Below are positions 2,551 to 63,847 of a stretch of DNA of 64,000 nucleotides, one piece after another. The notes below the pieces were generated by a model. That model searched no databases and had not been told where the DNA came from. It saw nothing but the letters and a program-made list of their open reading frames with translations. Made by a program: the position numbers and the translations under genes. The stretch spans positions 18,073 to 82,072 of the forward strand of contig JABMQN010000003.1 in NCBI GenBank assembly GCA_013203045.1, given 5' to 3'. The DNA comes from Chloroflexota bacterium (lineage in GTDB: Bacteria > Chloroflexota > Dehalococcoidia > SZUA-161 > SpSt-899). Numbering within the stretch: the first letter of the stretch is position 1; each line of letters starts with the position of its first letter.

Positions 2551-5001
2551 TTAAGTGAGTCCCACCGGGTCGATATCCACTGTCCAACCCTGAGGTATCG
2601 ACACCTTTGAAAGGATGGAAATGGGGTCCGGACTTCTGAGGACCACTTGCCAGCGGTATCTGCCGCGTACTCTTTGAGTGTATGCAGGGGATGGACCGAT
2701 TATCGCCATGTTAGCCAATCCTTGAGAACCCTGCTCCTCTCTGATAGCATCGGCCATTCGCTCGGCTTCTTCCTGGCATCGTTCAGCGTTGGTATGTATG
2801 TAGATCAGGCTTGCCAGTCGGTTAAATGGCGGATATGAATACTGGTGGCGAAGATCACTCTCCTGTGTATAGAAAGAACCGAAATCCTGTTGAGCGGCAG
2901 CTATAATGGCATAGTGTTCGGGAGTATAGGTTTGAATGATGGCTTGTCCTCCCCGCTGCCCACGCCCAGCTCTCCCAGATACCTGTGAAAGAAGTTGAAA
3001 AGTACGCTCGCCGGCACGGAAATCGGGGAGGTATAAGCCAATGTCTGCATTGATTACGCCCACCAGTGTTACCAGCGGGATATCGAGCCCTTTGGCGATC
3101 ATCTGCGTACCGATGAGAATATCAGCCTCGTGCGACTGGAACGTGTGCAGGATTTTTTCGTGCGAATATTTTCCCTTGGTGACATCGCGGTCCCAGCGAA
3201 GAATCCTTGCTTGTGGGAAAGCTCTGGCCGTCTCTTCCTCAACCTTTTGAGTGCCGATGCCAAGGAACTTGATACGTCGGCTCCAACATTTAGGGCAAGA
3301 GGTTGGAGTAGGGATGCGATAATTGCACAAGTGGCAAATGAGTTCATTCTCTTCATAATGGTGAGTAAGTGCCATCTCGCATCGCCTGCAACTCATGACG
3401 TGTCCACAATCGCGACATTGCACAAAAGAAGCTGCTCCCCGGCGATTAAGGAACAAGATTACCTGTTCTCTTGCGGCCAGAGCTTCGTCGATGGCTTGCG
3501 CAAGCTTTCGACTAAAAATACTCCTGTTGCCTTGCTTGAGTTCTTGCCGAAGATCGACGAGTACTACCTGTGGCAAAACCGGAAACATCCCATTATTGGT
3601 CTCACCAACTCGTTCTGGTAGTTCCAACAATTGGTAATCGCCTTTTTGAGCGTGATGATAGCTCTCGATATCCGGGGTTGCGCTCCCCAAGATCACCACA
3701 GAACCTGTCAGTTCAGCGAGTTTCAAAGCAGCTTTACGAGCATGATAAAGAGGAATTTTATCGTGTTGTTTGTAGGTCCATTCGTGCTCTTCGTCGATAA
3801 CGATGAGTCCTAAATCGGGCTGCGGTGCAAAGATGGCACTGCGTGATCCGATCACCACATCGAACTCCCCTTCCCGAATCCGATGCCACTCATCGAATTG
3901 TTCGCCGGGAGAAAGCTTACTGTGAAGCACAGCAACACGATCCGGGAACCGGGATGCAAAGCGGGCTATAGTTTGTGGTGTGAGAGCAATTTCAGGGACG
4001 AGCACGATGGCCTTCTTCCCCTGAGCAATGGTCTCTTTCAGGGCTCTGAGATATATCTCTGTTTTCCCGCTACCCGTAATACCGTGCAGGAGGAAAACCG
4101 AAGGTTCACGTTTAGCCGAAAGACCGCGCAGTTTCTCCTGGATTTGCACCCACGCTGTTTTTTGATCGGGTGTTAGTTCCGGGGGCGAAACGGATGGGAA
4201 GCTGCGGTGTGCCAGTGGGTCTCGCCGCACTTCGATTTTTTCAATGGTTACCAGTCCTTTTTTTTGCAGTGATCGAGCGACATTTTGAGCGGCTCCCGTT
4301 TGTTTTACAGCTTCTGAAAGAGGGAGGTCATCCACCTCTTCAATGAGAAGACGTAGCAGATCGGATTGCCTCAATGCTCTCTTTTTCTCCAGGATGACTA
4401 TCTGGCTTTCTGCTTCGTGACGATCAACAGCGAGTCGGATATGAAGTATCTCCTTGGGTTTGATCCGTTCGTGCTGCAATGCGGTTGTTTTCTTTATCAG
4501 TCCCTTGGCTACCAGCTGCTTGATTGTGGGACTGATTTGCTTTTCCGGCATCTTCTTTTTGAGTTGACGGGCATCGATGCTACCGGATTTTTTCAGGAAA
4601 TTGAATACCTTCTTCTGTATGGGTGTTAGTTTGGCAGTAGCTTCTGCCGGAGAGTCGGAAACAGGTTCGATAAATATCAGCGTCCGTCTTTCGAAACCGG
4701 GGGGCAGCATCAGTGATGCCGCTTCAAAATAGGGTGACAAATAGTATTCGGCGATCCATCGGGCCAGCTCTACTTGGTGTTCGGAAAGAAGTGGTTGAGG
4801 CTCGATGACCTCGGCGATTTCTTTGGTCTCTTCCACCGGGGAATGGTCAGTGAGGTTGAAAACGATTCCCTGGAGGGTTCTTGGCCCGAATGGTACCCAA
4901 ACAGCGCAACCTACGGCGATTTGGGGATCAGGTGGTAAGGTATATGTAAAAGTTCGCGGCCATGCTGTTGGGGCATTGACCGCGACTTCGGCATATTTCA
5001 T
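2551..5001 (-). CDS. priA: primosomal protein N' (replication restart helicase PriA)
   Basis: 816 aa with Walker A GITGSGKT, DEEHE box, Cys-rich zinc-binding insert (CRDCGHVMSCRRCEMALTHH...CHLCNY) and C-terminal helicase domain. Confidence 0.9.
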   Translation of the reverse strand: MKYAEVAVNAPTAWPRTFTYTLPPDPQIAVGCAVWVPFGPRTLQGIVFNLTDHSPVEETKEIAEVIEPQPLLSEHQVELARWIAEYYLSPYFEAASLMLPPGFERRTLIFIEPVSDSPAEATAKLTPIQKKVFNFLKKSGSIDARQLKKKMPEKQISPTIKQLVAKGLIKKTTALQHERIKPKEILHIRLAVDRHEAESQIVILEKKRALRQSDLLRLLIEEVDDLPLSEAVKQTGAAQNVARSLQKKGLVTIEKIEVRRDPLAHRSFPSVSPPELTPDQKTAWVQIQEKLRGLSAKREPSVFLLHGITGSGKTEIYLRALKETIAQGKKAIVLVPEIALTPQTIARFASRFPDRVAVLHSKLSPGEQFDEWHRIREGEFDVVIGSRSAIFAPQPDLGLIVIDEEHEWTYKQHDKIPLYHARKAALKLAELTGSVVILGSATPDIESYHHAQKGDYQLLELPERVGETNNGMFPVLPQVVLVDLRQELKQGNRSIFSRKLAQAIDEALAAREQVILFLNRRGAASFVQCRDCGHVMSCRRCEMALTHHYEENELICHLCNYRIPTPTSCPKCWSRRIKFLGIGTQKVEEETARAFPQARILRWDRDVTKGKYSHEKILHTFQSHEADILIGTQMIAKGLDIPLVTLVGVINADIGLYLPDFRAGERTFQLLSQVSGRAGRGQRGGQAIIQTYTPEHYAIIAAAQQDFGSFYTQESDLRHQYSYPPFNRLASLIYIHTNAERCQEEAERMADAIREEQGSQGLANMAIIGPSPAYTQRVRGRYRWQVVLRSPDPISILSKVSIPQGWTVDIDPVGLT

Positions 5002-5004
5002 TCC

Positions 5005-5349
5005 TTATTGGCTCGATTTTAGTTTGAGTCGAGTCTTCTTCCGGCTAAGGCCTCTGAGGTAATACAGCTTGGCTCTGCGGACATGTCCGCGTGCTACTAC
5101 CTGGACTTTCTCCAGAAAAGGGGAATTGTATGGGAAGATTCGTTCTACGCCAACTCCGTGGAAAATCTGTCTCACGGTGAAAGTGGCTGAAACACCACTG
5201 CCTCGTTTGCGGATGACAATACCCTGAAAAACCTGTATGCGTTGTCTTTCACCTTCTACAACTTTAAAGCTAACCTTAACGGTATCACCGGGCCGAAAGT
5301 CTTCAATATTCGGGTTGGGCTCTACTTCAACAACTGATCGCACGTCCAT
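5005..5349 (-). CDS. rplS: 50S ribosomal protein L19
   Basis: 114 aa with typical L19 sequence (FRPGDTVKV...[10 protein letters not shown]...RRAKLYYLR). Sits upstream of trmD as in the conserved trmD-rplS cluster. Confidence 0.93.
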
Positions 5350-5396
5350 TTTGGATAATCCTTCTTAATCTAAACTCGCAATTAGAAATTGTAACA

Positions 5397-6119
5397 CTAT
5401 TCAAACATTTTTTCCAGCATTTGGCGTTCTTTGTTAGTCAGCTCGGCTTTTTCAAGAAGGTCTGGGCGGCGTTTCAATGTTCGCAGGATCGCTTGCTCAC
5501 GGCGCCATTTAGCGATCTCAGCGTGGTGTCCGGAGAGCAAAACAGGCGGCACTTCCCAACCTCGGAAGTCTTGCGGTCGAGTGTACTGCGGATACTCTAG
5601 CAATCCGTTGGAGTGAGAGTCTTCTTTTACCGATTCGTCCGAACCAAGGACGCCGGGAAGCTGTCTTACCACAGTATCAATCACCACCATCGCTGCCAGT
5701 TCGCCACCGGTCAAAACATAGTCGCCGATACTTATTTCATCGGTAACCAGGTGTTCCCTCACGCGCTCGTCGACTCCCTCATAATGTCCGCAGATAAGGA
5801 CGAACCGCGAGTGGGATGCCAGCTCCTCCGCTACCTGTTGATTGAACAGTCTGCCTTGCGGTGTAAGCAAGATGACGGGTATCTCAGAATCATTTTTAAT
5901 AGCTTCTACTGCGGCAAAAAGTGGTTCTGCCATGAGGACCATTCCGGCTCCGCCACCGTGAGGATAATCGTCGACCACTCGGTGCTTACCCAGTCCATGA
6001 TCGCGCAAATTATGGATGGCGATTTCAACAAGTCCATTGTCTATGGCCCGTTTGATGATACTCTCATCAAACGGGCCGCTGAACATATTGGGAAAAAGAG
6101 TTATGATGTCGATATGCAC
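5397..6119 (-). CDS. trmD: tRNA (guanine37-N1)-methyltransferase
   Basis: [14 protein letters not shown]-terminus and SPOUT-fold TrmD signature. Adjacent to rplS. Confidence 0.92.
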
Positions 6120-6129
6120 TTTATTGTAT

Positions 6130-6597
6130 TCACAAATTTCTGGAGTAATCTATTAATTGGCCGCGGCGGAAATCTACAGATTCGAACAATCCCTGCAATT
6201 CACTATCATGTTGATCAACCATCACGCGGATCAACTTCAGGCCTCGCGATTGGCAATTCTCAGTCAGTGCTCCGATGAGTTTTCTGGCAATACCTTGTCG
6301 ACGGTAATCGGGGTCCACACCCACCACTTGAATGGTGCATGCTTCTGTAATTTGATCAGCGACGTAAGTAATTGCAGCTAGAGCGAAACCTACTACTCGT
6401 CCATTTACTTCGGCAACGAAACTTGTCCCGATGTCTCCACCGATATACCCATTGATCAAATCCACATAAGTGAAGGCTCTTTCTGTTGCTCCTATCTTCC
6501 TATCGATTTCGAAGATGCCATCAATGTCATCCTGTATCATTGGACGGATCTGTACTTCAGCTCCCGTGACTGCCATAATGACCTCCTTCGATATCAA
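6130..6597 (-). CDS. GNAT family N-acetyltransferase
   Basis: Acetyl-CoA-binding motif ([13 protein letters not shown]) in a ~155-aa protein. Confidence 0.7.
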
Positions 6598-6676: not shown

Positions 6677-6709
6677 CCGTAGAGACGTCCCGCCGGGACG
6701 TCTCTACGG
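6677..6709. repeat. Perfect palindromic hairpin CCGTAGAGACGTCCC-GCC-GGGACGTCTCTACGG (REP-like; second copy at 28031-28073)
   Basis: 15-bp inverted arms read directly. Core TAGAGACGTCCCGnCGGGACGTCTCTA is shared with the 28 kb copy. Confidence 0.8.
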
Positions 6710-28030: not shown

Positions 28031-28073
28031 TTGCATTATAGAGACGTCCCGTCGGGACGTCTCTATAATGCAA
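28031..28073. repeat. 43-nt perfect palindrome TTGCATTATAGAGACGTCCC-GTC-GGGACGTCTCTATAATGCAA (REP-like; copy of 6677-6709 core)
   Basis: 20-bp perfect stem read directly. Lies immediately after the stop of the 26101..28023 gene, so it may double as a terminator-like hairpin, but there is no T-run. Confidence 0.8.
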
Positions 28074-53796: not shown

Positions 53797-53847
53797 TTTG
53801 CACCCAAATCCTCCATTAGAAATTAGATTACTGATTAACTGGCACTG

Positions 53848-53948
53848 AAAAAGGGTAAACCTGCCGAAAGGCGGCGGCGCAGAGCTACGGGTCTAAAGTC
53901 GCATGAGCCAGGACAACCGAGTTACCGAGTGCGACTTCGACTTTGTTA
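53848..53948 (+). ncRNA. structured 5' leader with GEMM/c-di-GMP-I-riboswitch-like motifs (GGGUAAACC...CGAAAG...GGUCUAAA...GUUACCGA)
   Basis: By-eye resemblance to the c-di-GMP-I consensus (GCAAACC, GNRA loop, CUAAA, GUUACCGA). Not computationally verified. Confidence 0.35.
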
Positions 53949-53984
53949 CGCCTTTGGGCCGCATTGCCCAAAGGCGTTTGTGTC
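53949..53984 (+). terminator. intrinsic terminator/attenuator hairpin CGCCTTTGGG-CCGCATTG-CCCAAAGGCG + TTTGTGTC
   Basis: Perfect 10-bp GC-rich stem followed by a U-rich tract, located inside the leader upstream of the PAS gene. Confidence 0.6.
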
Positions 53985-54015
53985 AGATAAAAATCCCAAT
54001 AATGAGGGTATTCGT

Positions 54016-55734
54016 ATGAGAGATGAAAAGAAAACCAAAGCAAAACTCATCGAAGAACTGCAACAGATGCGCTATAGAGTGGCCGAATTGGAGGCCCCAG
54101 AAACAGGACGCAAGCAGACGGAGGAACAATTGAGAATCCTCTCATCGGTAGTTGATCAAAGTGTAAACTCAATTGCCGTACTCGACAATGAAGGCAATGT
54201 TGAATACGTGAATTCGAAACTGCTTGAGCCATATGAAATTAATCCCGAGGAAATCATTGGTACAAACTGGCGGTCCTTTCTATCTGAACATTCCTCTCTG
54301 AGAAGCCGGTATGACGAAATGCGAAGCACTGTTCTGGAAGAGGGGGAAGTATGGAGAGGAGAAGTCTCAGATAGAACAGTGAACGGGGAAACAATATGGA
54401 GAGAAGCGACTGTTTTCCCAATTGTAGATGCGAGCGGAACGGTTACCCATTCCGTGTATATGAGCCAGGACATTACTGATCGCAAACAGGCAGAGCAAGA
54501 GCGAGTACGGTTAACTGCAATTCTAGAGAACACCAGCGACATGGTTTCTACGGCGCTGCCAGACCAACGAATAACCTATATGAACCGAGCGGGAAAAGAA
54601 ATGCTTGGCTGGCCAAATGAAAACATCTCTATAGATAAAGATATTCACATGGCTCATCCGCAGTGGGCTGCTGAAATGATTGAGAAAGAAGGTGTTTCCA
54701 CAGCGATCCGCGATGGTATCTGGAGAGGTGAGACTGCGTTGTTGGGTACCAATGGCACCGAGATTCCGGTTTCACAGGTGATCATGTCTCATAAGTCTTC
54801 AACCGGCGAATTGGAATACCTGTCCACCATCATTCGAGATATCAGTGAGCGCAAGCAGGCAGAGGAAGTAATGAGACAAAGCGAAGAAACCCTCAAAGTA
54901 TCTCAGGAGATCGGCCATATCGGCAGTTGGAGCCTCGACCTGGAAAAAAACGATCTGTTGTGGTCTGACGAGGTCTACCGGATATTCGGATTGATGCCTC
55001 AGCAGTTTGACACCACGTATGAGGTGTTTTTAGAAGCAGTTCATCCGGATGATAGGGAGATGGTCAACTCGGCTTATACCACTGCTATTAAAACTCATGC
55101 TCCCTATGAAGTGGTCCACAGGGTCCTGAGACCGAACGGGGAAGTGAGAATTGTCCGAGAAAAATCGGTAGACATTGCAGACGAATCTGGAAGGATAGTT
55201 CGATCTGTCGGAATGATACATGATATTACCGAGCAGAAGCTGGCCGAGGAGGCCCTGAGGGACAGTGAAGAGAAACTCCGCAGTATTCTTGAATCATCTC
55301 CCGATGCCATTACCGTCACTAATCTGGAGGCAAAGCTGACCGATTGCAATCCCGCAACTCTGTCCATGCACGGTTTTGATACTATGGAAGAACTGATCGG
55401 CATGGATACCCTTGAGTTAATAAAGCCGGAAGATCATCAAAGGGCGGTGGAAAATATCCAAAGAACTTTGGATCAGGGTACCGCGAAGAATATAGAATAC
55501 ACTTTTTTAAGAAAAGACGGAACTGAATTCTTAGGAGAAATTTCCGCAAGCGTGATTCGGGATGTGTTTGGCAATCCGGTTTCCTTCGTGGCCATAACAA
55601 AAGACATCGCTGAGCGCAGGCAAGCGGAGGAAGTACTGCGGGAATCGGAGGGAAAATTCAGAAGCATAGTCAATTCCTCCCCGATGGGGATGCATATGTA
55701 CCAACTGGAATCCGACGGACCGCTTCAAAGGTGA
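54016..55734 (+). CDS. multi-PAS/PAC sensor protein lacking any recognisable output domain
   Basis: Coiled-coil N-terminus followed by about four PAS/PAC repeats. Ends ...MHMYQLESDGPLQR with no HisKA/HATPase/GGDEF/EAL. ATG 54016 (the track extension runs through the terminator hairpin). Confidence 0.7.
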   Translation: MRDEKKTKAKLIEELQQMRYRVAELEAPETGRKQTEEQLRILSSVVDQSVNSIAVLDNEGNVEYVNSKLLEPYEINPEEIIGTNWRSFLSEHSSLRSRYDEMRSTVLEEGEVWRGEVSDRTVNGETIWREATVFPIVDASGTVTHSVYMSQDITDRKQAEQERVRLTAILENTSDMVSTALPDQRITYMNRAGKEMLGWPNENISIDKDIHMAHPQWAAEMIEKEGVSTAIRDGIWRGETALLGTNGTEIPVSQVIMSHKSSTGELEYLSTIIRDISERKQAEEVMRQSEETLKVSQEIGHIGSWSLDLEKNDLLWSDEVYRIFGLMPQQFDTTYEVFLEAVHPDDREMVNSAYTTAIKTHAPYEVVHRVLRPNGEVRIVREKSVDIADESGRIVRSVGMIHDITEQKLAEEALRDSEEKLRSILESSPDAITVTNLEAKLTDCNPATLSMHGFDTMEELIGMDTLELIKPEDHQRAVENIQRTLDQGTAKNIEYTFLRKDGTEFLGEISASVIRDVFGNPVSFVAITKDIAERRQAEEVLRESEGKFRSIVNSSPMGMHMYQLESDGPLQR

Positions 55735-56116: not shown

Positions 56117-56574
56117 AAGAATACCTCCCTTTAAATAAAGGCTGCTTATCTACAAGACGAGTGGCAACGTGCGGAAGTTCCTTGATGGGCCTATGACAGA
56201 TAGCGGAAAGGTGATTCTCAGATCGTTAAACGCACGAGAATAACTGTAGGGGCGAGTTTAGGTTTCTAGGGTAGGCCCTCACTAGGTTGGGCATTGTTCA
56301 CCTTCAGCAAAACTCAAGATACAGAGAGAATCACCCACTACACTGAGCCTCTTGCAAAATTCTGTGGAACAGGCTTGAGACTTGCAATTGATTAAGAAAG
56401 ACAGGCCCAATATGTTTTTACAACCACGCAAGCCTGGAAATTGTCTGCCTTACCCCAATAATTGAGGTAAATAGAGCTATTATCTTTGTTTTTGCCGTTT
56501 CTTGAGCATACTTCCCCTTTTGCAACCGCGTTTGGCGCATTTGAAAACTTCTCTTTTCGTTATCAAGTAAGAAA

Positions 56575-57726
56575 CTATGTGGCAGCAAGACGTAACAGTT
56601 GATCGGCTGTTAGCGCCAACATGCCAAACATCAAATGAGTCATTACTTTAGCATGCCCCCGAACTCGTATCATCCTCCCACCAAACTCGTCCTTCAAGCG
56701 ACCATACACTCTCTCAACACTTGTTCTCTCTTTGTATCGACGGCTCTCAGGCCGTTCAAAGTGAAGAAATTTGAAACGTCGAGCTTCTGCCTTCAAATCC
56801 TCTTTCAGTTCCGTATTCCGCCGTGGATTGATATCCACAATCGGTATATGCCCCAGTGATTTGCTGTACTCTCTGATAACCGGAGCATCATAAGCTGAAT
56901 CCATCAAGTCATATAGGTTGGTAACCCGTTGGTTCGTCACAGATGCCAGAGGTAATGACACTTGGCTGTCATGAACTGAGGCTGAAGTCAGAATACAGCT
57001 AACGGGAATCTGACCGTCTGCAACATCGATGTGAAGCTTGTATCCAATCCAAGTCTCTTTGTGGCCCTTGCTGTTCTTCTTCGTGCCAACATCACACTTA
57101 TTCGGCAGGTCATCCAGCATTTCATCTACCGTTGTCATGGTTTGCTGGCGCTCCAATCGAGTTGTCACTTTCGCCCGTTCCTCACCCTTCTTGGGACGAC
57201 CACGTTTCTGCTTCAAAGATTCCATCTCTGATTCAGCTTTTAATTTCTTCTCCGGCTTTTCCCGAACTTCAATCTCCGTCGAATCCCGAGAGATATGCCC
57301 TACGATATCCTCGGACAGATTATTGACAATCAATGCTTCGTGGACATGTGTCGATAATTGAGTTTCCGAGAACTCTTCATAAGCTCGCGAGAAGGTTGCT
57401 TCGCTTGGTATATCACTCTTCATTTCCCATCCGCAAATACGACGCAACTTATTGTCACATTCAAGACGGTCCAAGAGTGCACGTGTTGTCGGCATATTGT
57501 ATACAGCTTTGGCAACAAAAGCTCGCGCTACAGGAGCACGCTCCTCCGGCGGCCTTCCTCGTAAGCTGTTATTGAGGGCAACAAACCTCTCGATTCGAAT
57601 CATGTCCAATGTGACTATAAGTTTCTGCTCTTTCTCGGTCAATTTGCCAAATGATTCCTCAAGCCAGGGGAAAAGACTCCCTTGTATCTTCAGCCAATAT
57701 CCAGATATTCTCTCAACTAACTCCAC
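56575..57726 (-). mobile_element. IS4/IS5-type DDE transposase gene (insertion sequence; ends not defined)
   Basis: 383-aa protein with N-terminal HTH region and DDE region (...HIDVADGQIPVS...DSAYDAPVIREY...). Terminal inverted repeats could not be identified by eye. Confidence 0.65.
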
Positions 57727-57937
57727 AGATGATCTCCTTCTCGTTTATCTACACTCTCATTTTACCCTAATCAATGGAGATCAAACCATTATTGTACAGT
57801 CGAATAATTATGCCTCTTTACCGACTTTTGCAAGAGGCTCCACTGTTAATCATTTTTCGTACTCCAATCCGCCCCAAGGTAACAAACTGTATACTTTGTT
57901 ACCCACTCGTTGAAATCGGCCAAATTCTAAATGTGTC

Positions 57938-58027
57938 TTGACAATTCACTTTATTATATGTAGAGTAATTCCACATTATATATGTTAATATGTTGACAAA
58001 TACAACTATAATAAGTATCATATGTAG
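57938..58027 (+). promoter_or_regulatory. two sigma70-like promoters (TTGACA-17-TAGAGT and TTGACA-17-TATCAT), each overlapped by a TATATGTAG box; a third inverted box CTACATATA sits at 58298-58306 after the gene
   Basis: Hexamers and 9-mer repeats read directly in an AT-rich leader of the C2H2 gene. Confidence 0.45.
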
Positions 58028-58064
58028 ATGCAATCTATAAAAAGATATTAAGGATGTAGCATAA

Positions 58065-58283
58065 ATGAGTTACGCACAATATCGACCACCACGCCGACTA
58101 TGGATCTGTCCTGTCCCAGGCTGTGAATCGAATTTCGAGGAACGTTGGCGACTAAAGCGGCACCTCAAACTTACTCATAGACTAGGTGAAAGAGACGCTA
58201 CCATCACAGCCGAGAGGTCGGAATACTGGCTACGGTTGGGATATGTGAATCCCCGCACCTTTTTTGGTGATGAAATGGATTAA
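58065..58283 (+). CDS. small C2H2 zinc-finger protein (CPVPGC-x13-H-x4-H)
   Basis: WICPVPGCESNFEERWRLKRHLKLTH is a classical C2H2 finger spacing. 72 aa. Confidence 0.6.
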   Translation: MSYAQYRPPRRLWICPVPGCESNFEERWRLKRHLKLTHRLGERDATITAERSEYWLRLGYVNPRTFFGDEMD

Positions 58284-58359
58284 ATTATTACGATGCTCTA
58301 CATATAGGCTATGCACTGTCTTTGAAAATATGTAATTAGTACTTTGGGAGATCAATGTA

Positions 58360-58875
58360 ATGGACAACATAGATCGCTTGGAAAAATTATTGGACGGTAC
58401 AAATTTCATGGCTTTCCCGGATTTAAATTCTCTGGATCCTATGAAAGATTTTGAGGATCACAACACTGGGGAGTGGGAAAAACTCGGTAATGACAAGGCT
58501 GAAAGGATTAGGGGCTTAATATGGGCGATTGCGGCGGACAAGCTACAGCCGATGGCTTTTGAGAAATGGGGCAACACCAGTGACTCGGCGGTAAAAGATG
58601 TGCTTCAGGAGACGCTAAATGAAAAACTGGGGGAACTCGAACGTAATACGGACTGGCAGCATGTAATCAAGAATGTAAAAAACTACCTTATGAACGAGGA
58701 GCAGTGGACTCCAGAACAAGTCGAACAATTGATTCATTTCTGCCTAATTGATTACTGGGTGGATTTCTGCGCTGATGGCGTTAAAAGTTGGGAGCTATTA
58801 CCACGAGCCAACGTTTGGGAGATAGTCGATTTACTGGCCAGCTTGTATAGGGAGGTCAGCCTTGGCAATAATTGA
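58360..58875 (+). CDS. hypothetical protein (acidic, helical)
   Basis: 171-aa ORF with good coding look. Overlaps the start of the serine recombinase by 14 nt (co-transcribed). Confidence 0.55.
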   Translation: MDNIDRLEKLLDGTNFMAFPDLNSLDPMKDFEDHNTGEWEKLGNDKAERIRGLIWAIAADKLQPMAFEKWGNTSDSAVKDVLQETLNEKLGELERNTDWQHVIKNVKNYLMNEEQWTPEQVEQLIHFCLIDYWVDFCADGVKSWELLPRANVWEIVDLLASLYREVSLGNN

Positions 58876-60997
58876 TGATATATTAATCTCTTTAAACACT
58901 AGGGGATCAAAACCAAGCGAATCAGATCTGCGGAAACTCCCTTTCAGAAAAGCAGACATCTATGGAAGGCAGTCGGATCCCAGCCAAGTACGTGATCACA
59001 AACAATCCCTTCTCGAAATTGCAGACTTGGTGGAACTAGCTAAAAATGATGGGTACAAGAGTGAACTAACCAAAGAACAAGTTGAAGCATGGCTACTATC
59101 AATTCAACGAGGGGAGACGGAGAAAGGCGTATTGGTTAATGGTGATATTATGGTTGATGTTCGGGATTTGGGGATTTCCGGGCAGTTGTCCGCTGAATAC
59201 CGTGAGGGATTGACTGCCCTTATCAACGGAATTGAGAATAACGAGATTGGTTCTGTTTATGTAGCTGAACCCAGTCGACTTACTCGTGATAGAGAAGGTC
59301 TTCAGCCGCCCATTTTTCTCCGCTTGTTTAAAACTCACTTCTGCAGAGTTAGAACGCCAGAAGGTACTTGGAACGCAGCTATACCTGCGGACTGGGAATA
59401 TCTCCACGAAGAATTTCAATTGGCGAGAAAGGAGAATATACACTTCGGGCGACGTTTATACCGAAAAAGAAAAAAGAAAGCAGGAAACGGCGATTATGTA
59501 GGGGAACCTGTCACATTGGGTTACAAATTGAAAATCCTACGTATTAGCTCGAATGGGAGGTACGAATTTGGGAGAATGGAACCGTACGCCCCTCATGCTG
59601 AGATTGTGAACGAAATACTTAGGGAGTATTTAAACCAAGACGGAAGCTGGCAAAGAACTGCCCAAGCACTAAAGGGCACCATAATCCCATTCTTTGAACC
59701 TGAACTCAATTATATGTGTAATTACTCAGTGTTGAGGCAGTGCACTGAGTTGGCAGATGGTTATAAAATAACACCTACACTGATCAAAGGAGTTGTGAAG
59801 AATCCCAAGATTATAGGTATTCATTATTGGGGAGACACAGTTCCAATTGCACATAATCATGAACCTATCGTGTCTGAGGAGTTATTTACAAGAGCCTATA
59901 CGGTGGCAACTAGAAAAGGCAAACCCAAGGGAAAAACTGTAAGATTTGAGCCTCTTGTGCTCTCTGGTCTCCTCATGTGCTGCGAACATCAAGAACCAAT
60001 AGTGATGTCAAGCAATCGCAAGGAAGGGCGCTATAGATGTGATCGTGGATATCGATCTGGCCAAGACCATCATTGTATGCTCATCACTGATCACCTTGTT
60101 GATGAGCCTGTTACATCGGCGATACTCGGGCAGTTGGATTTAACACCATTCGCTCAGGAGGTACTAGACAAATTTGAGACAGACGTTGCACAGGTCAACG
60201 TTGAAAAAATGAACTATCGAAAGAAAGTATCCGAATTGAAACAGAGGTTGGAAAATCTCAAACCGTATTTGGGATGCGGAGATCCAAAGCGAGAGGATAT
60301 ATACTGGGATTTGTACCAGGAAACTCTGGATACTATAAATGACCTTCAGGCCAAACCGCCTTCAGATATCACAAAAAGTAAAGGGACAGACATTACCAAA
60401 TTACGAATGTTCCTTTCAGAATTACCTAAGAACTGGCAATTATTCAACCATAGCCAACAGAATCGGTTTATAGGACTCTTCATTGATAGGATTGATGTAT
60501 GGCACAAGGATCGTCGAATCGATTTACAGATCATTTGGAAAAACGGTTTTGTACAATCATTGACAATAGATCTCCCAAAGGCTAATAACAAACTTGGCAA
60601 TGCATGGACGTCTCAAGAAAAAAACCTTCTTAGATTACTATGGCGGGATTACTCGAGAGAGGATATCCAAGGTGCATTACCCAATCGAAGTTGGGGAGCC
60701 ATTCAGAGCCAAGCGCATGTCATGAAGCTAAAGCGTCAGGTCGGCCATAGTAATCGGACTTACCATGGCCCATGGACAGATGCAGAGGAAGCAAATGCCA
60801 GGAAACTTTGGGAATTAGGAATTCGAAAAGAAGAAATTGCCCATGCAATCGGCAGAGGTGAGAACAGTGTCGCACAGAAAGCACGGCGCTCTGGATGGAA
60901 ACGCCCAGAGCATTTCAGGAAAAAGACCAGCAAGGTGTTATGCGTAGGTGAAAAGTTAGAAGTTCTGCAAGGATTGCCTTCCCAAGGTCGATGGTGA
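58862..60997 (+). CDS. large serine recombinase (resolvase catalytic domain + recombinase domain + zinc ribbon/coiled coil) with two C-terminal Myb/SANT-like repeats
   Basis: Catalytic IYGRQS and RLTRD motifs. Cys cluster CCEHQ...C. C-terminal repeats WTSQEKNLLRLLWRDY...W and WTDAEEANARKLWELG...W. TTG start with GGGAGG RBS. Confidence 0.8.
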   Translation: MAIIDDILISLNTRGSKPSESDLRKLPFRKADIYGRQSDPSQVRDHKQSLLEIADLVELAKNDGYKSELTKEQVEAWLLSIQRGETEKGVLVNGDIMVDVRDLGISGQLSAEYREGLTALINGIENNEIGSVYVAEPSRLTRDREGLQPPIFLRLFKTHFCRVRTPEGTWNAAIPADWEYLHEEFQLARKENIHFGRRLYRKRKKKAGNGDYVGEPVTLGYKLKILRISSNGRYEFGRMEPYAPHAEIVNEILREYLNQDGSWQRTAQALKGTIIPFFEPELNYMCNYSVLRQCTELADGYKITPTLIKGVVKNPKIIGIHYWGDTVPIAHNHEPIVSEELFTRAYTVATRKGKPKGKTVRFEPLVLSGLLMCCEHQEPIVMSSNRKEGRYRCDRGYRSGQDHHCMLITDHLVDEPVTSAILGQLDLTPFAQEVLDKFETDVAQVNVEKMNYRKKVSELKQRLENLKPYLGCGDPKREDIYWDLYQETLDTINDLQAKPPSDITKSKGTDITKLRMFLSELPKNWQLFNHSQQNRFIGLFIDRIDVWHKDRRIDLQIIWKNGFVQSLTIDLPKANNKLGNAWTSQEKNLLRLLWRDYSREDIQGALPNRSWGAIQSQAHVMKLKRQVGHSNRTYHGPWTDAEEANARKLWELGIRKEEIAHAIGRGENSVAQKARRSGWKRPEHFRKKTSKVLCVGEKLEVLQGLPSQGRW

Positions 60998-61306
60998 CAT
61001 CGAACGTATCGCCGTCTACTACCCTATTCACATGAGCTTTGTATGTGTAGTTTAGATTCATTGTGCCCCTTCAATTTTGGTGCTCATTATAACACTTTAA
61101 TTTGATCAGGGAAAACTGGCAATCAAAACCGTGCAAAATGGAATATGCTTTTCTATGTCCGCACGATGATGGCAAATCACTACGGGGGATTAAAAACGGT
61201 CTTGACTTGATCACCATCTTCCTCCATACTATCATGAAAACGATGTTCGATGAATGCTCTGTAATTCTTCCTTGTTGAAAGATTACTGATATCCAGAGGA
61301 ATAGAT

Positions 61307-62803
61307 GTGAAATCGGTCTTCAGTTTAGTCTGCGGCATACTGGTGATAGTTTCTTTATATTTGCCATGGTGGAATTTTGGTATTGAAGTCTCCGGATGGG
61401 AAGTGTTAGGAGAAACAGAGCTTTGGTGGGTAGGTAATACTGGACCGATAATTACTTTAGTTGGCGGGATCGTGCTGATTGGATGTGCACTGGCGGCTTT
61501 GATAGTGACCAGATTTAGATCTGAAGCAAAAAATGTATTTGCTGTGTTGCGAATACTTCCACGGATTGCTGCGTTCCTTGTTGTAATGGGTGCGGTTTGG
61601 TACATAATTGATGCCAGGGATTCAGATATGAGGGGTTGTGGAGGCATTTTACCTTTCGACTGGACTGGATTTGGAACTTGGCTTGCTATCGAGGCAGGTT
61701 TGGGGGGGTTGCTTGTAGGGGTGACTGTACCTTCCAGGTCCAAAATGTGGAGGCGGGAGTATGGAGAGAGTGTTAGTAAAGGTTCTCCTATGACATCTGG
61801 GGTGAGGGATTACAGTTTTCACGAAGATAGATTAGCGGGTCCGGTAAGGGCCTATGGCTCAGCTAAGGAGCATTTCAATCGAGCGAGTGATTCCCAGTCT
61901 GCAGGCAAGGATTCCCAGGCTGTTGTTGAGTATGACACTGCCATCAAACTCGACCCAAATTATACTTTGGCTTATTTCAATCGTGGTACACTACTCCTGT
62001 CGCAGGGCAACAAGAAAGATGCAATCGCTGATTTCGAAAAGGTTATCGAACTCTCTGATGATCCGGACCTTGCCAAAATGGCCCGGCATCGCATAAATGA
62101 AGCGAGTGTTACAAGTGATGAAAAGGAGTCTGGCTCTGTGATGCAAGGGGGACAACTGGAAAGTGGCGAAAAGGTCCCTGTCGTCGATCCCCATAGTTTA
62201 GCAAAAAACCATTTCGATAGAGCTTGCGATTACGAGGCCAGAGGAGACGATGATCGGGCTATTCAGGCGTACACTCAGGCTATTGACAGTGACTCCAAAT
62301 ATTCTTTGGCCTATTTCAACCGTGGATCACTCCGCTTATTGAGAGGAAGTGCGCCTGAGGCTATTACAGACTTTGAAAAAGTCCTCAAACTATCGACTGA
62401 TGATAATCTAACTCGCATGGCGCAAAAACGCCTTGATGAAGCAATGGCTACACTTAATCAAGAAGTCTCGGCTCCCGAATTGGCCAGGCAGTCTGATGAA
62501 AGCACTGCGGGAGATAAAGGGTCTGATCTTGGTAGTACGGCAAGGTACCATTTTAATCGGGCACGTGATTGTGAGTCCAAAGGAGATGATGAACTGGCTA
62601 TTGCAGCGTACAGTCAGGCTATCGTATCTGAACCTGATAAAGCCATAGCTTATTTTAACCGAGGTTCTCTTCATCTTTTACATGAAAATAAAGCTGAGGC
62701 TATCGCGGATTTCGAAAAGGTCATTGAGCTTTCCGATGATGATAACATGGTCGAAATGGCGCAGAATCGTATCAGTGAATTGAATGAGCAAGAGTGGGAC
62801 TAG
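61307..62803 (+). CDS. membrane-anchored TPR-repeat protein (N-terminal 4-TM domain + 4 tandem ~95-aa TPR-containing modules)
   Basis: N-terminal hydrophobic segments. Repeated module ...A(I/Y)xxYxxAIxxDxxYxLAYFNRG(T/S)L(L/R/H)L..G...AIxDFEKV(I/L)(E/K)LSxDD(P/N)(D/N)L..MA... Confidence 0.7.
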   Translation: MKSVFSLVCGILVIVSLYLPWWNFGIEVSGWEVLGETELWWVGNTGPIITLVGGIVLIGCALAALIVTRFRSEAKNVFAVLRILPRIAAFLVVMGAVWYIIDARDSDMRGCGGILPFDWTGFGTWLAIEAGLGGLLVGVTVPSRSKMWRREYGESVSKGSPMTSGVRDYSFHEDRLAGPVRAYGSAKEHFNRASDSQSAGKDSQAVVEYDTAIKLDPNYTLAYFNRGTLLLSQGNKKDAIADFEKVIELSDDPDLAKMARHRINEASVTSDEKESGSVMQGGQLESGEKVPVVDPHSLAKNHFDRACDYEARGDDDRAIQAYTQAIDSDSKYSLAYFNRGSLRLLRGSAPEAITDFEKVLKLSTDDNLTRMAQKRLDEAMATLNQEVSAPELARQSDESTAGDKGSDLGSTARYHFNRARDCESKGDDELAIAAYSQAIVSEPDKAIAYFNRGSLHLLHENKAEAIADFEKVIELSDDDNMVEMAQNRISELNEQEWD

Positions 62804-62926: not shown

Positions 62927-63847
62927 ATGAGATCAATCGTCAGTTTGGTTAGTGGGATAGTGGTGGTGGTAGGAGCATTGTTTGTGTCTTGGCTTAGTGT
63001 TGTTGAGAGTGGAGGCCAGGACCGTGTAACCAGGTTATTCGGTCGCGAAATAATCGGTGGGGATGCAGAATTGGTAAGCACAAGTGGGCCTATCCTCACA
63101 GTTATCGGTGGTGTATTGCTAATCGTCATCGCACTTGTTTCTTTTATAATGGTTATGGCGAATCTCAGGGCACGGAGAACTTATTTGACTTTATCACTTG
63201 GAGCCAGGTTGGCTGCGCTGCTGGTTATTGCGGGTGCTACTTTGTATTTTACTGATGTTACGGATAATAAGGCGGGTTTGGAGGAATACTATTATCCAGA
63301 TGGAGCGAAAGTGATGATTGAAGAAGGTGTTTTCATCAGTCTTTTTGGAGCCTTGCCTGGATTGATCATCGGTGTTACTACGCCGTTCTCGGTTTGGAAT
63401 ATGCTGTTTCGCAGGAGAGGTGACGAGGAAGGCACTGAAGGCCGGATAGCTACTCCAGTTCAGCGGCGAGAAGAGTACTACACCAACGGAGAAGCTGTTG
63501 ATGGACTCACCTTGAGAAAAGGGTATAGCGAAAAGCTCAAAGGAACTGCTGACGAGGTTCCTTCTGGAACACCGGAGGAGCACTTTACAAGAGCGGTACG
63601 TTATGAGGCGGAGGGGAAGTATGACGAAGCAATTGATGAATACGATGCTGCGATCATCGGCAACGCGAATTATCCACTAGCTCATTCCAATCGAGGTTCG
63701 CTTCATTTGGTCTTGGGGCACAGTGTAAAAGCTCTCTATGATTTCGAAAAGGTAATCGAGTTGTCTGATGATCCCGACCTTGCAGCGATGGCGCAAGATC
63801 GCGTTGATGAATTGAACGAACAGACCAGTGATGATAGCATGGTATAA
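62927..63847 (+). CDS. membrane-anchored TPR-repeat protein, paralog with a single C-terminal TPR module
   Basis: N-terminal TM domain similar to 61307..62803 (SLVSGIVVVVGALFVSWL; ...GPILTVIGGVLLIVIALV). C-terminal ...YPLAHSNRGSLHLVLGHSVKALYDFEKVIELSDDPDLAAMAQDRVDELNEQ. Confidence 0.7.
   Translation: MRSIVSLVSGIVVVVGALFVSWLSVVESGGQDRVTRLFGREIIGGDAELVSTSGPILTVIGGVLLIVIALVSFIMVMANLRARRTYLTLSLGARLAALLVIAGATLYFTDVTDNKAGLEEYYYPDGAKVMIEEGVFISLFGALPGLIIGVTTPFSVWNMLFRRRGDEEGTEGRIATPVQRREEYYTNGEAVDGLTLRKGYSEKLKGTADEVPSGTPEEHFTRAVRYEAEGKYDEAIDEYDAAIIGNANYPLAHSNRGSLHLVLGHSVKALYDFEKVIELSDDPDLAAMAQDRVDELNEQTSDDSMV

Follow-up and report, generated by a model that had tools for sequence, protein, structure and literature searches.

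A single-finger classical C2H2 protein encoded at the head of a compact serine-recombinase element in Chloroflexota

The DNA considered here is a stretch of 64,000 nucleotides (nt) from a Chloroflexota bacterium (contig JABMQN010000003.1), the whole of which we call the window. At 58065-58283 on the plus strand it holds an open reading frame (ORF) for a protein of 72 amino acids (aa) which, by its ligand spacing, hydrophobic core and family profile, is a genuine C2H2 zinc-finger protein of the classical type, with a single finger, predicted to bind zinc. This finger gene opens what, on comparison with related loci, is an integrative element of about 3.1 kb (about 57873-60988), comprising a promoter, the finger gene, a gene for a 171-aa protein and the gene of a large serine recombinase. 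A preceding interpretation made from the letters alone, here the sequence-only reading, had seen in the same region a bacterial C2H2 gene bracketed by operator-like boxes and had proposed an autoregulated switch governing the neighbouring recombinase. The gene itself, its type of finger and its tie to the recombinase hold good on closer analysis, while the proposed operator has to be replaced by a shorter and less certain element.

The translation of the ORF, MSYAQYRPPRRLWICPVPGCESNFEERWRLKRHLKLTHRLGERDATITAERSEYWLRLGYVNPRTFFGDEMD, contains the ligand motif C15-PVPG-C20-X12-H33-X4-H38, i.e. C-X4-C-X12-H-X4-H, with F24 and L30 in the canonical positions of the hydrophobic core, such that the arrangement characteristic of classical fingers (C-X2-4-C-X12-H-X3-5-H with an aromatic and a leucine core residue) is present in full; the X13 spacing given previously was a miscount of the canonical X12. 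The finger proper occupies residues 11-38, its helix (RWRLKRHLK) is strongly basic, and it is followed by a second helix at 42-51 and by the pair E53-Y54, which is invariant in the family. AlphaFold2, run on the family alignment, returned a predicted local distance difference test score (pLDDT) of 93-97 for residues 11-50, with strands at 11-14 and 23-24, a helix at 27-37, the second helix at 42-51 and a strand at 53-55, and from this model we are confident in predicting a beta-beta-alpha finger to which an extra helix is added. Ligands, core residues, predicted fold and profile matches thus agree on a finger of eukaryotic style. In the Pfam scan the best match of the 72-aa protein was FOXP-CC (21.5 bits against a threshold of 28.9), and no match to PF00096, PF13894 or ROS_MUCR was obtained at E<=1.

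The bacterial origin of the protein, as previously claimed, is confirmed by its presence on record in a Chloroflexi metagenome-assembled genome (MAG) and by the c-di-GMP-I riboswitch in the window; an archaeal origin, with the boxes of the leader as TATA elements, was dropped because of these same two observations together with the sigma-70 promoter and Shine-Dalgarno sequence before the gene.

The family is rare. A word-indexed search with the 72-aa protein returned only itself (HQ553_00525, from the Chloroflexi MAG) and one relative of 59% identity. When 1.84 billion representatives were scanned exhaustively with HMMER, two classes of match emerged, namely long multi-finger proteins aligned to residues ~10-45 and a handful of single-finger proteins of 70-80 aa; a profile built on the latter class collected 36 members of 42-105 aa, all of them metagenomic and none with a Pfam assignment. 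The family was not found in 185,579 species genomes (GTDB contigs, one genome per species), nor in IMG/VR, INPHARED phages or PLSDB plasmids, and a pattern scan of metagenomes added one further locus. With 36 relatives among 5.8 billion clusters, the rarity asserted by the sequence-only reading is supported.

Among the 34 aligned members, on which the residue conservation and Pfam counts are based, P9, C15, C20, W28, L30, H33, H38, E53 and Y54 are invariant, the spacer between the cysteines is of either 2 or 4 residues, and many members end in an acidic C-terminal tail. The profile search against zf-C2H2 models that had been suggested as a check gave a divided result, since 27 of these 34 members match zf-C2H2_4 (PF13894), every one below threshold, but the 72-aa protein itself does not. 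Against the PDB the family profile reaches CTCF, ZBTB7A/17, YY1 and the consensus finger (best value 1.7e-9, summed over many fingers). In structure the model comes closest to AFV1p06, a finger protein of an archaeal virus, and next to fingers of the Zif268 type; for so small a domain none of the E-values is significant.

Likeness to the classical eukaryotic fingers of the TFIIIA/Zif268 type accordingly extends to the C-X2-4-C-X12-H-X3-5-H spacing, the F...L core, the predicted beta-beta-alpha fold and the profile-level similarity to CTCF, ZBTB and YY1. In other respects the protein departs from them: it has only one finger, to which a helix and a strand are added, it carries the invariant E-Y-W motif and a tryptophan at helix position 2, it scores below the Pfam gathering thresholds, and its gene belongs to an operon served by a sigma-70 promoter and is preceded by a Shine-Dalgarno sequence. 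Ros/MucR proteins resemble it in being bacterial and in having a Cys2His2 zinc site, and are DNA-binding regulators, as the 72-aa protein may be. Their domain is structurally different and larger (PMC7663847). Their C-to-H spacing is shorter, X9 as against X12. None of the 34 members matches ROS_MUCR and no Ros chain stands among the best 60 of the 132 PDB profile matches of the family; on these grounds and that of spacing membership of Ros/MucR is excluded, and the distinction drawn previously is upheld by the very profile search proposed for it.

Classical C2H2 fingers are regarded as practically absent from bacteria (PMC3541406), and close analogues in kind are the AFV1p06/SSV-type proteins of archaeal viruses (PDB 2LVH; PMC3541406), which are likewise small, single-finger proteins of mobile elements combining the finger with a structural extension. 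AFV1p06 binds both zinc and DNA, and the study describing it found no homologue in bacteria (PMC3541406). It shares 20% identity with the 72-aa protein, at a Foldseek E-value of 0.49, which is not significant; it lacks the fourth ligand, a histidine, that the 72-aa protein possesses; and it is archaeal with no recombinase linkage described (PMC3541406), whereas the protein described here is bacterial and linked to a recombinase.

Downstream of the finger gene and on the same strand lie the gene for the 171-aa middle protein (58360-58875), which is all-helical and fast-evolving, and, overlapping it, the gene for the 711-aa large serine recombinase (58862-60997). The AlphaFold model of the middle protein (pLDDT 57.6) was too poor for a fold search. 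The recombinase contains the catalytic motif R36-x-S38-xxx-Q42, in which R36, S38 and Q42 are invariant in three homologues, followed by a Recombinase domain (35.4 bits, above the cutoff of 21.1) and a zinc ribbon, and thus has the catalytic serine motif and the domains expected of a large serine recombinase; in Pfam it matches Resolvase (21.1 bits where the cutoff is 23.3) and Zn_ribbon_recom weakly, and PHROG 95 integrase is matched at 1.6e-43. At its C-terminus (residues ~573-690) there is a pair of Myb/HTH-like repeats (WT..E...L..LW) that match PHROG 323 'transcriptional regulator, D5-like' (4e-13) and, weakly, GcrA/Terminase_5, an extension which is unusual among large serine recombinases. 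Within the recombinase gene we also observe a direct 15-nt repeat, TTATGTAG(N4)AACC, at 59257-59271 and 59494-59508, which contains the ATGTAG core of the leader boxes described below.

The association of finger and recombinase is retained in relatives. The order finger, ~170-200-aa protein, large serine recombinase is found in the window and in the loci L001, L007-9 and L014 (L013 being the same locus interrupted by an IS630-type insertion); in L019 the finger gene is followed directly by a serine recombinase (Resolvase 34.9 bits); and in L010-12 and L018 the finger stop overlaps the start of a gene for a 468-aa tyrosine recombinase. The previously suggested tie between the finger protein and the adjacent recombinase is therefore strengthened, the linkage being kept in 7 independent loci, with a recombinase of either the serine or the tyrosine type. 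A distant finger subfamily adjoins an IS110-type gene in a phage-like region. Comparison of L007 (serine) with L010 (tyrosine) reveals 75% nt identity across promoter and finger gene and none downstream, a pattern which suggests that the finger gene, together with the consensus sigma-70 promoter before it, is a portable control cassette which mobile elements of Chloroflexota set in front of genes for site-specific recombinases.

Conversely, the position at the head of the operon can be taken by other proteins. In L021-26 the chromosomal site occupied in the window holds a sister element, which has a middle protein 65% and a recombinase 56% identical to ours, but whose first gene (L021 385-600, also in L023) encodes a 71-aa protein that bears two C2H2 fingers and is unrelated to our finger protein (in L021 PF00096 at 27.2 bits, above the cutoff of 25.2), and the L021 leader cannot be aligned with that of the window. 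Among Dehalococcoidia and Chloroflexota MAGs, recombinases more remotely related to ours have upstream either an AbrB/MazE-type protein (30.5 bits, above cutoff) together with a 240-aa protein or, in L027, a zinc ribbon of the phage Mu Com type (27.7 bits, above cutoff). Because one-finger C2H2, two-finger C2H2, AbrB/MazE-type and Com-type proteins alternate there, the lead slot, as judged by these domain assignments, is that of a small nucleic-acid-binding regulator whose fold is interchangeable.

The right end of the element is set at 60978/60979 because identity to L021 jumps at this point, the last mismatch lying at 60978, with 55-74% identity inside and 96-99% to the right. The jump is spanned by the 8-mer CCCAAGGT at 60981-60988, the putative crossover core of the right attachment site (attR), and the recombinase ORF extends 9 nt beyond this core. 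The same 8-mer occurs at 57873-57880, 58 nt upstream of the first -35 hexamer, where it would constitute the core of the left attachment site (attL); with two copies of CCCAAGGT expected and three present in the window, this end is probable and not proven. The ends are thus marked by a short shared core, at a site which carries different elements in related hosts, and in the reconstructed attB a minus-strand ORF stays in frame. The junction of the circular form is predicted to read from the 3' end of the recombinase gene through CCCAAGGT into GTAACAAAC... A search for the empty site by way of the neighbouring DUF5679 gene returned only the same locus. In base composition the element (42.9% GC) lies below the window (47.9%), and the leader is at 27%.

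A precedent is available in L007, where an element of 3.15 kb (3262-6420; likewise L008), consisting of the promoter and three genes only, splits a flavodoxin/FMN_red gene of the opposite strand, the 5' part of which overlaps the 3' end of the recombinase gene while the 3' part is left of the promoter; joining the two halves at the common CCGAA restores the protein, with the FMN_red match spanning the junction. Left of the promoter, a remnant of this flavodoxin 3' end also survives in L010/L011, with tyrosine recombinases, and in L019, which has only the recombinase; the integrase gene of L010 overlaps, at the 3' end, an antisense ComEC gene. In the window the element interrupts a short minus-strand ORF (60915-61061) with a thermonuclease-like N-terminus, YKAHVNRVVDGDTFDV. 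The splitting of an SNase-like gene was considered as a means of locating the left end and rejected, the remainder being an ORF of 35 codons only in which Pfam found nothing; because the reconstructed pre-insertion ORF is so short, 60915-61061 is probably an older gene remnant.

Abutting the putative attL core is a near-perfect 24-bp palindrome, GTAACAAACTGTATACTTTGTTAC (57879-57902), of which the window has one copy; there being no second, it was rejected as a second recombination site. It is kept at 19 of 24 positions in the sister element (L021 87-110), and because the surrounding DNA and the finger gene are unrelated there, the palindrome tracks the recombinase or the middle protein and not the finger.

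The element may be compared with the ssrA-specific islands of Dehalococcoides (PMC3146451), which are also mobile elements of Chloroflexi, moved by serine recombinases whose genes lie at the element edge. These islands insert at the tmRNA gene by means of a 6-gene integration module (DsiB of 540 aa, DsiA and others), and they bring cargo genes but no gene for a zinc finger (PMC3146451), as opposed to the three genes, 3.1 kb, absence of cargo and insertion into protein-coding genes seen here.

The leader lies between attL and the finger gene. Its two promoter-like sites on the plus strand, both with an exact TTGACA hexamer, as claimed, and with a 17-nt spacer, are P1 (57938-57966, TTGACA-17-TAGAGT, 10/12) and P2 (57993-58021, TTGACA-17-TATCAT, 11/12), the region holding 4 such sites against 2.8 +/- 1.7 in shuffles. 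The boxes were proposed as copies of the 9-mer TATATGTAG, each overlapping a -10 region. This is exact for box 1, TATATGTAGAG (57955-57965, plus strand), which contains the first TATATGTAG and whose GTAGAG is the -10 region of P1, overlapping TAGAGT; box 2, CATATGTAGAT (58019-58029, plus strand), has instead CATATGTAG (58019-58027), agreeing in only 8 of 9 bases, and both overlaps and follows the -10 TATCAT of P2. Exact TATATGTAG is present only at 57955 on the plus and 58298 on the minus strand, where 0.27 copies are expected and 3 of 100 shuffles reach two. The latter copy belongs to the inverted repeat of box 1 described after the gene, CTCTACATATA as read on the plus strand (58296-58306, oriented to the minus strand). 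This inverted pair of TATATGTAGAG (57955/58296) does exist and extends to 11 nt, but is at chance level, isolated 11-nt inverted repeats within 400 nt being expected ~5.6 times per 64 kb and arising in 17% of local shuffles. As an invertible segment or recombination site it was rejected, given its chance frequency and the lack of extended similarity in its flanks.

The conservation of the leader points to a shorter core. A third copy, missed previously, is box 3, ATGTAG at 58054-58059, in the interval from the Shine-Dalgarno AAGGA, which it overlaps (together 58050-58059, plus strand), to the ATG, and 32 nt after box 2. Four copies of ATGTAG occur in the 461 nt of 57900-58360 as against 25 in the window as a whole, a number reached in 0 of 5000 local shuffles for a motif picked post hoc, and 6 of the 25 fall inside the element. 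An exact TTGACA is present in the leader of all 10 non-redundant finger loci. P1 aligns with the single promoter of L007, L010, L018 and L019 (TTGACA-17/18-TAGAGT/TAGACT), the downstream ACATT included; the promoter of the relatives reads TTGACA-17/18-(T)GGTAGAGT or TTGTAGACT, then ...ACATT, and its conserved -10 element is TGGTAGAGT / TTGTAGACT. From this homology it follows that box 1 is largely the -10 element. GTAGA overlaps the -10 hexamer in P1 of the window and in L007, L010, L018 and L019, and in six loci (the window, L001, L007, L014, L018, L019) the stretch from Shine-Dalgarno sequence to ATG contains (A)TGTAG. From one GTAG core to the other the distance is 31 nt in L007, L018 and L019; in the window it is 32 nt between boxes 2 and 3 and 64 nt between boxes 1 and 2. 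The leader of the window has the look of an ancestral unit duplicated in tandem. Over the last 35 nt before the ATG, L007, L018 and L019 share 71-83% identity, compared with 46-70% at third codon positions. This conservation of the short core is footprint-like and situated where a repressor would act, a pattern that cannot be separated from constraint on the promoter and on translation initiation.

Since the shorter GTAGA/(A)TGTAG core is kept in position, the operator idea survives in a weaker and modified form, and we give about even chances to the proposal that the finger protein is a small nucleic-acid-binding controller, which would auto-repress its near-consensus promoter and thereby throttle the recombinase; autoregulation as such is plausible. 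We infer that the protein would bind nucleic acid by its basic helix, at GTAGA-type sites lying over the -10/transcription start and in the interval from Shine-Dalgarno to ATG, about three helical turns apart, and that in the bound state it would repress its own strong promoter. The outcome would be a burst of recombinase on entry into the cell, giving way to low expression once the finger protein has accumulated. Control of recombinase operons is usually a matter for other protein folds.

Several observations weigh against such a controller. A single finger reads only 3-4 bp, and specificity would therefore need oligomerisation or extra contacts. The 9-mer TATATGTAG was found in no homologous locus examined, so the box as first conceived is not conserved, and the 11-nt inverted repeat is, as said, at the level of chance. 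The conserved GTAGA may simply be the -10 hexamer and the TGTAG before the ATG a feature of RNA or translation, and across the sister elements GTAGA/ATGTAG is not enriched beyond these two leader positions. To this must be added the loci L015/16 and the P0171 contig, in which finger and ~200-aa protein occur with no recombinase, the position of the 72-aa protein beneath every Pfam gathering threshold, and the placing of the left end by one 8-mer.

The main alternative, which we regard as rather unlikely, though not negligible, is that the finger protein is an excisionase-like directionality or architectural factor acting near the element end to bias excision, and that it might double as a repressor in the manner of P2 Cox and 186 Apl, both of which unite promoter repression with excision. 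Like lambda Xis, P2 Cox, 186 Apl and AlpA/TorI, it is a small basic protein of ~70 aa encoded directly upstream of the recombinase gene, with the stop/start overlap of the tyrosine loci reproducing the classical xis-int layout, and it adjoins an attachment site, for the whole leader borders attL, from which the promoter is no more than about 60-110 nt away. The acidic tail of many members accords with such a role, as does a match of the distant member P0174 to DUF1233 'putative excisionase' (residues 19-62), although this match is sub-threshold (19.4 bits, cutoff 22) and confined to 1 of the 34 members. The known proteins are, moreover, of winged-helix or helix-turn-helix type and serve tyrosine integrases, whereas the same finger cassette occurs with serine and tyrosine recombinases alike. 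Directionality factors of large serine recombinases act through contact with the recombinase itself, on which account a recombinase-agnostic factor is disfavoured; where the recombinase is of the serine type, the rapidly evolving middle protein (171-240 aa) is better placed and is itself a candidate directionality factor, and a translational regulator of Com type can fill the slot of the finger. A search of the literature for C2H2 proteins tied to recombinase modules or directionality factors brought up nothing relevant. In its broadest form, which we consider improbable, the finger family would be a recombinase-agnostic cofactor, packaged with its promoter beside the att site and controlling directionality or target choice of serine and tyrosine recombinases in cargo-free mini-elements of 2-3 kb in Chloroflexota.

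It is also unlikely that the boxes are nothing but promoter and ribosome-binding-site sequence with AT-rich chance repeats and the finger a zinc-stabilised protein-interaction module or cargo that does not regulate the recombinase. The unconserved 9-mer, the chance-level inverted repeat, the lack of significant enrichment of promoter-like sites and the finger loci that have no recombinase are all as expected if this were so. But synteny with two unrelated recombinase superfamilies is strict across 53-60% protein divergence, other nucleic-acid-binding folds replace the finger in sister elements, the helix of the finger is highly basic and the leader more strongly conserved than synonymous sites, none of which suits a bystander.

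Very unlikely, finally, is an action on RNA, by which the protein would bind the 5' untranslated region near the Shine-Dalgarno sequence and (A)UGUAG and control translation of the operon as does Com of phage Mu. C2H2 fingers are able to bind RNA, as TFIIIA does, the conserved TGTAG between Shine-Dalgarno and ATG is within the transcript, complementary ACAU...AUGU segments flank the Shine-Dalgarno sequence in the leaders, and the equivalent slot of L027 is held by a Com-type zinc ribbon. The L001 leader folds better than its shuffles (z = -3.2, 2/200), yet single folds of the other leaders are no better than shuffles and RNAalifold found no consensus structure in 10 leaders; the GTAGA copy at the -10, furthermore, is upstream of the predicted transcription start and hence not in the RNA.

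Other features of the window are noted for completeness. Outside the element, 29 nt from attL, is a complete insertion sequence (56345-57840), bounded by terminal inverted repeats of 21 nt, flanked by a CACT target duplication of 4 bp and encoding a DDE_Tnp_1/DUF772 transposase on the minus strand (56575-57726). Immediately downstream of the element are genes for two paralogous membrane-anchored TPR-repeat proteins (61307-62803 and 62927-63847), the DNA of which is mostly 90-97% identical to that of the related host of L021, with a dip to ~70% in the repeat region. The c-di-GMP-I riboswitch (53844-53929, 57.7 bits) is directly upstream of the gene for a protein with four PAS domains (53929-55734). 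Two long GC-rich hairpins, at ~6677-6709 and ~28031-28073, have the common core TAGAGACGTCCCG...CGGGACGTCTCTA and may represent a dispersed palindromic repeat or a family of terminators.

A coherent bacterial family thus retains the full classical C2H2 signature, and does so as the lead gene of minimal site-specific recombination modules. That gene is a small one of the regulator or excisionase type, built on a fold unusual for bacteria, in a slot which one-finger C2H2, two-finger C2H2, AbrB-type and Com-type proteins fill interchangeably, and the compact Chloroflexota mini-elements carrying it have apparently not been described so far. If binding and regulation by the finger protein are true, there would be a natural single-finger module that recognises DNA or RNA and works in bacteria. 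Large serine recombinases, in which genome engineering takes an interest, would gain a novel kind of control protein, and self-contained integrative elements as small as 3.1 kb, whose attachment sites can be defined, would become available. Should the family prove to be a recombinase-agnostic cofactor, it would represent a new class of recombination control protein and, at the same time, a reservoir of classical fingers in bacterial mobile elements, with a bearing on the origin of the eukaryotic fold.

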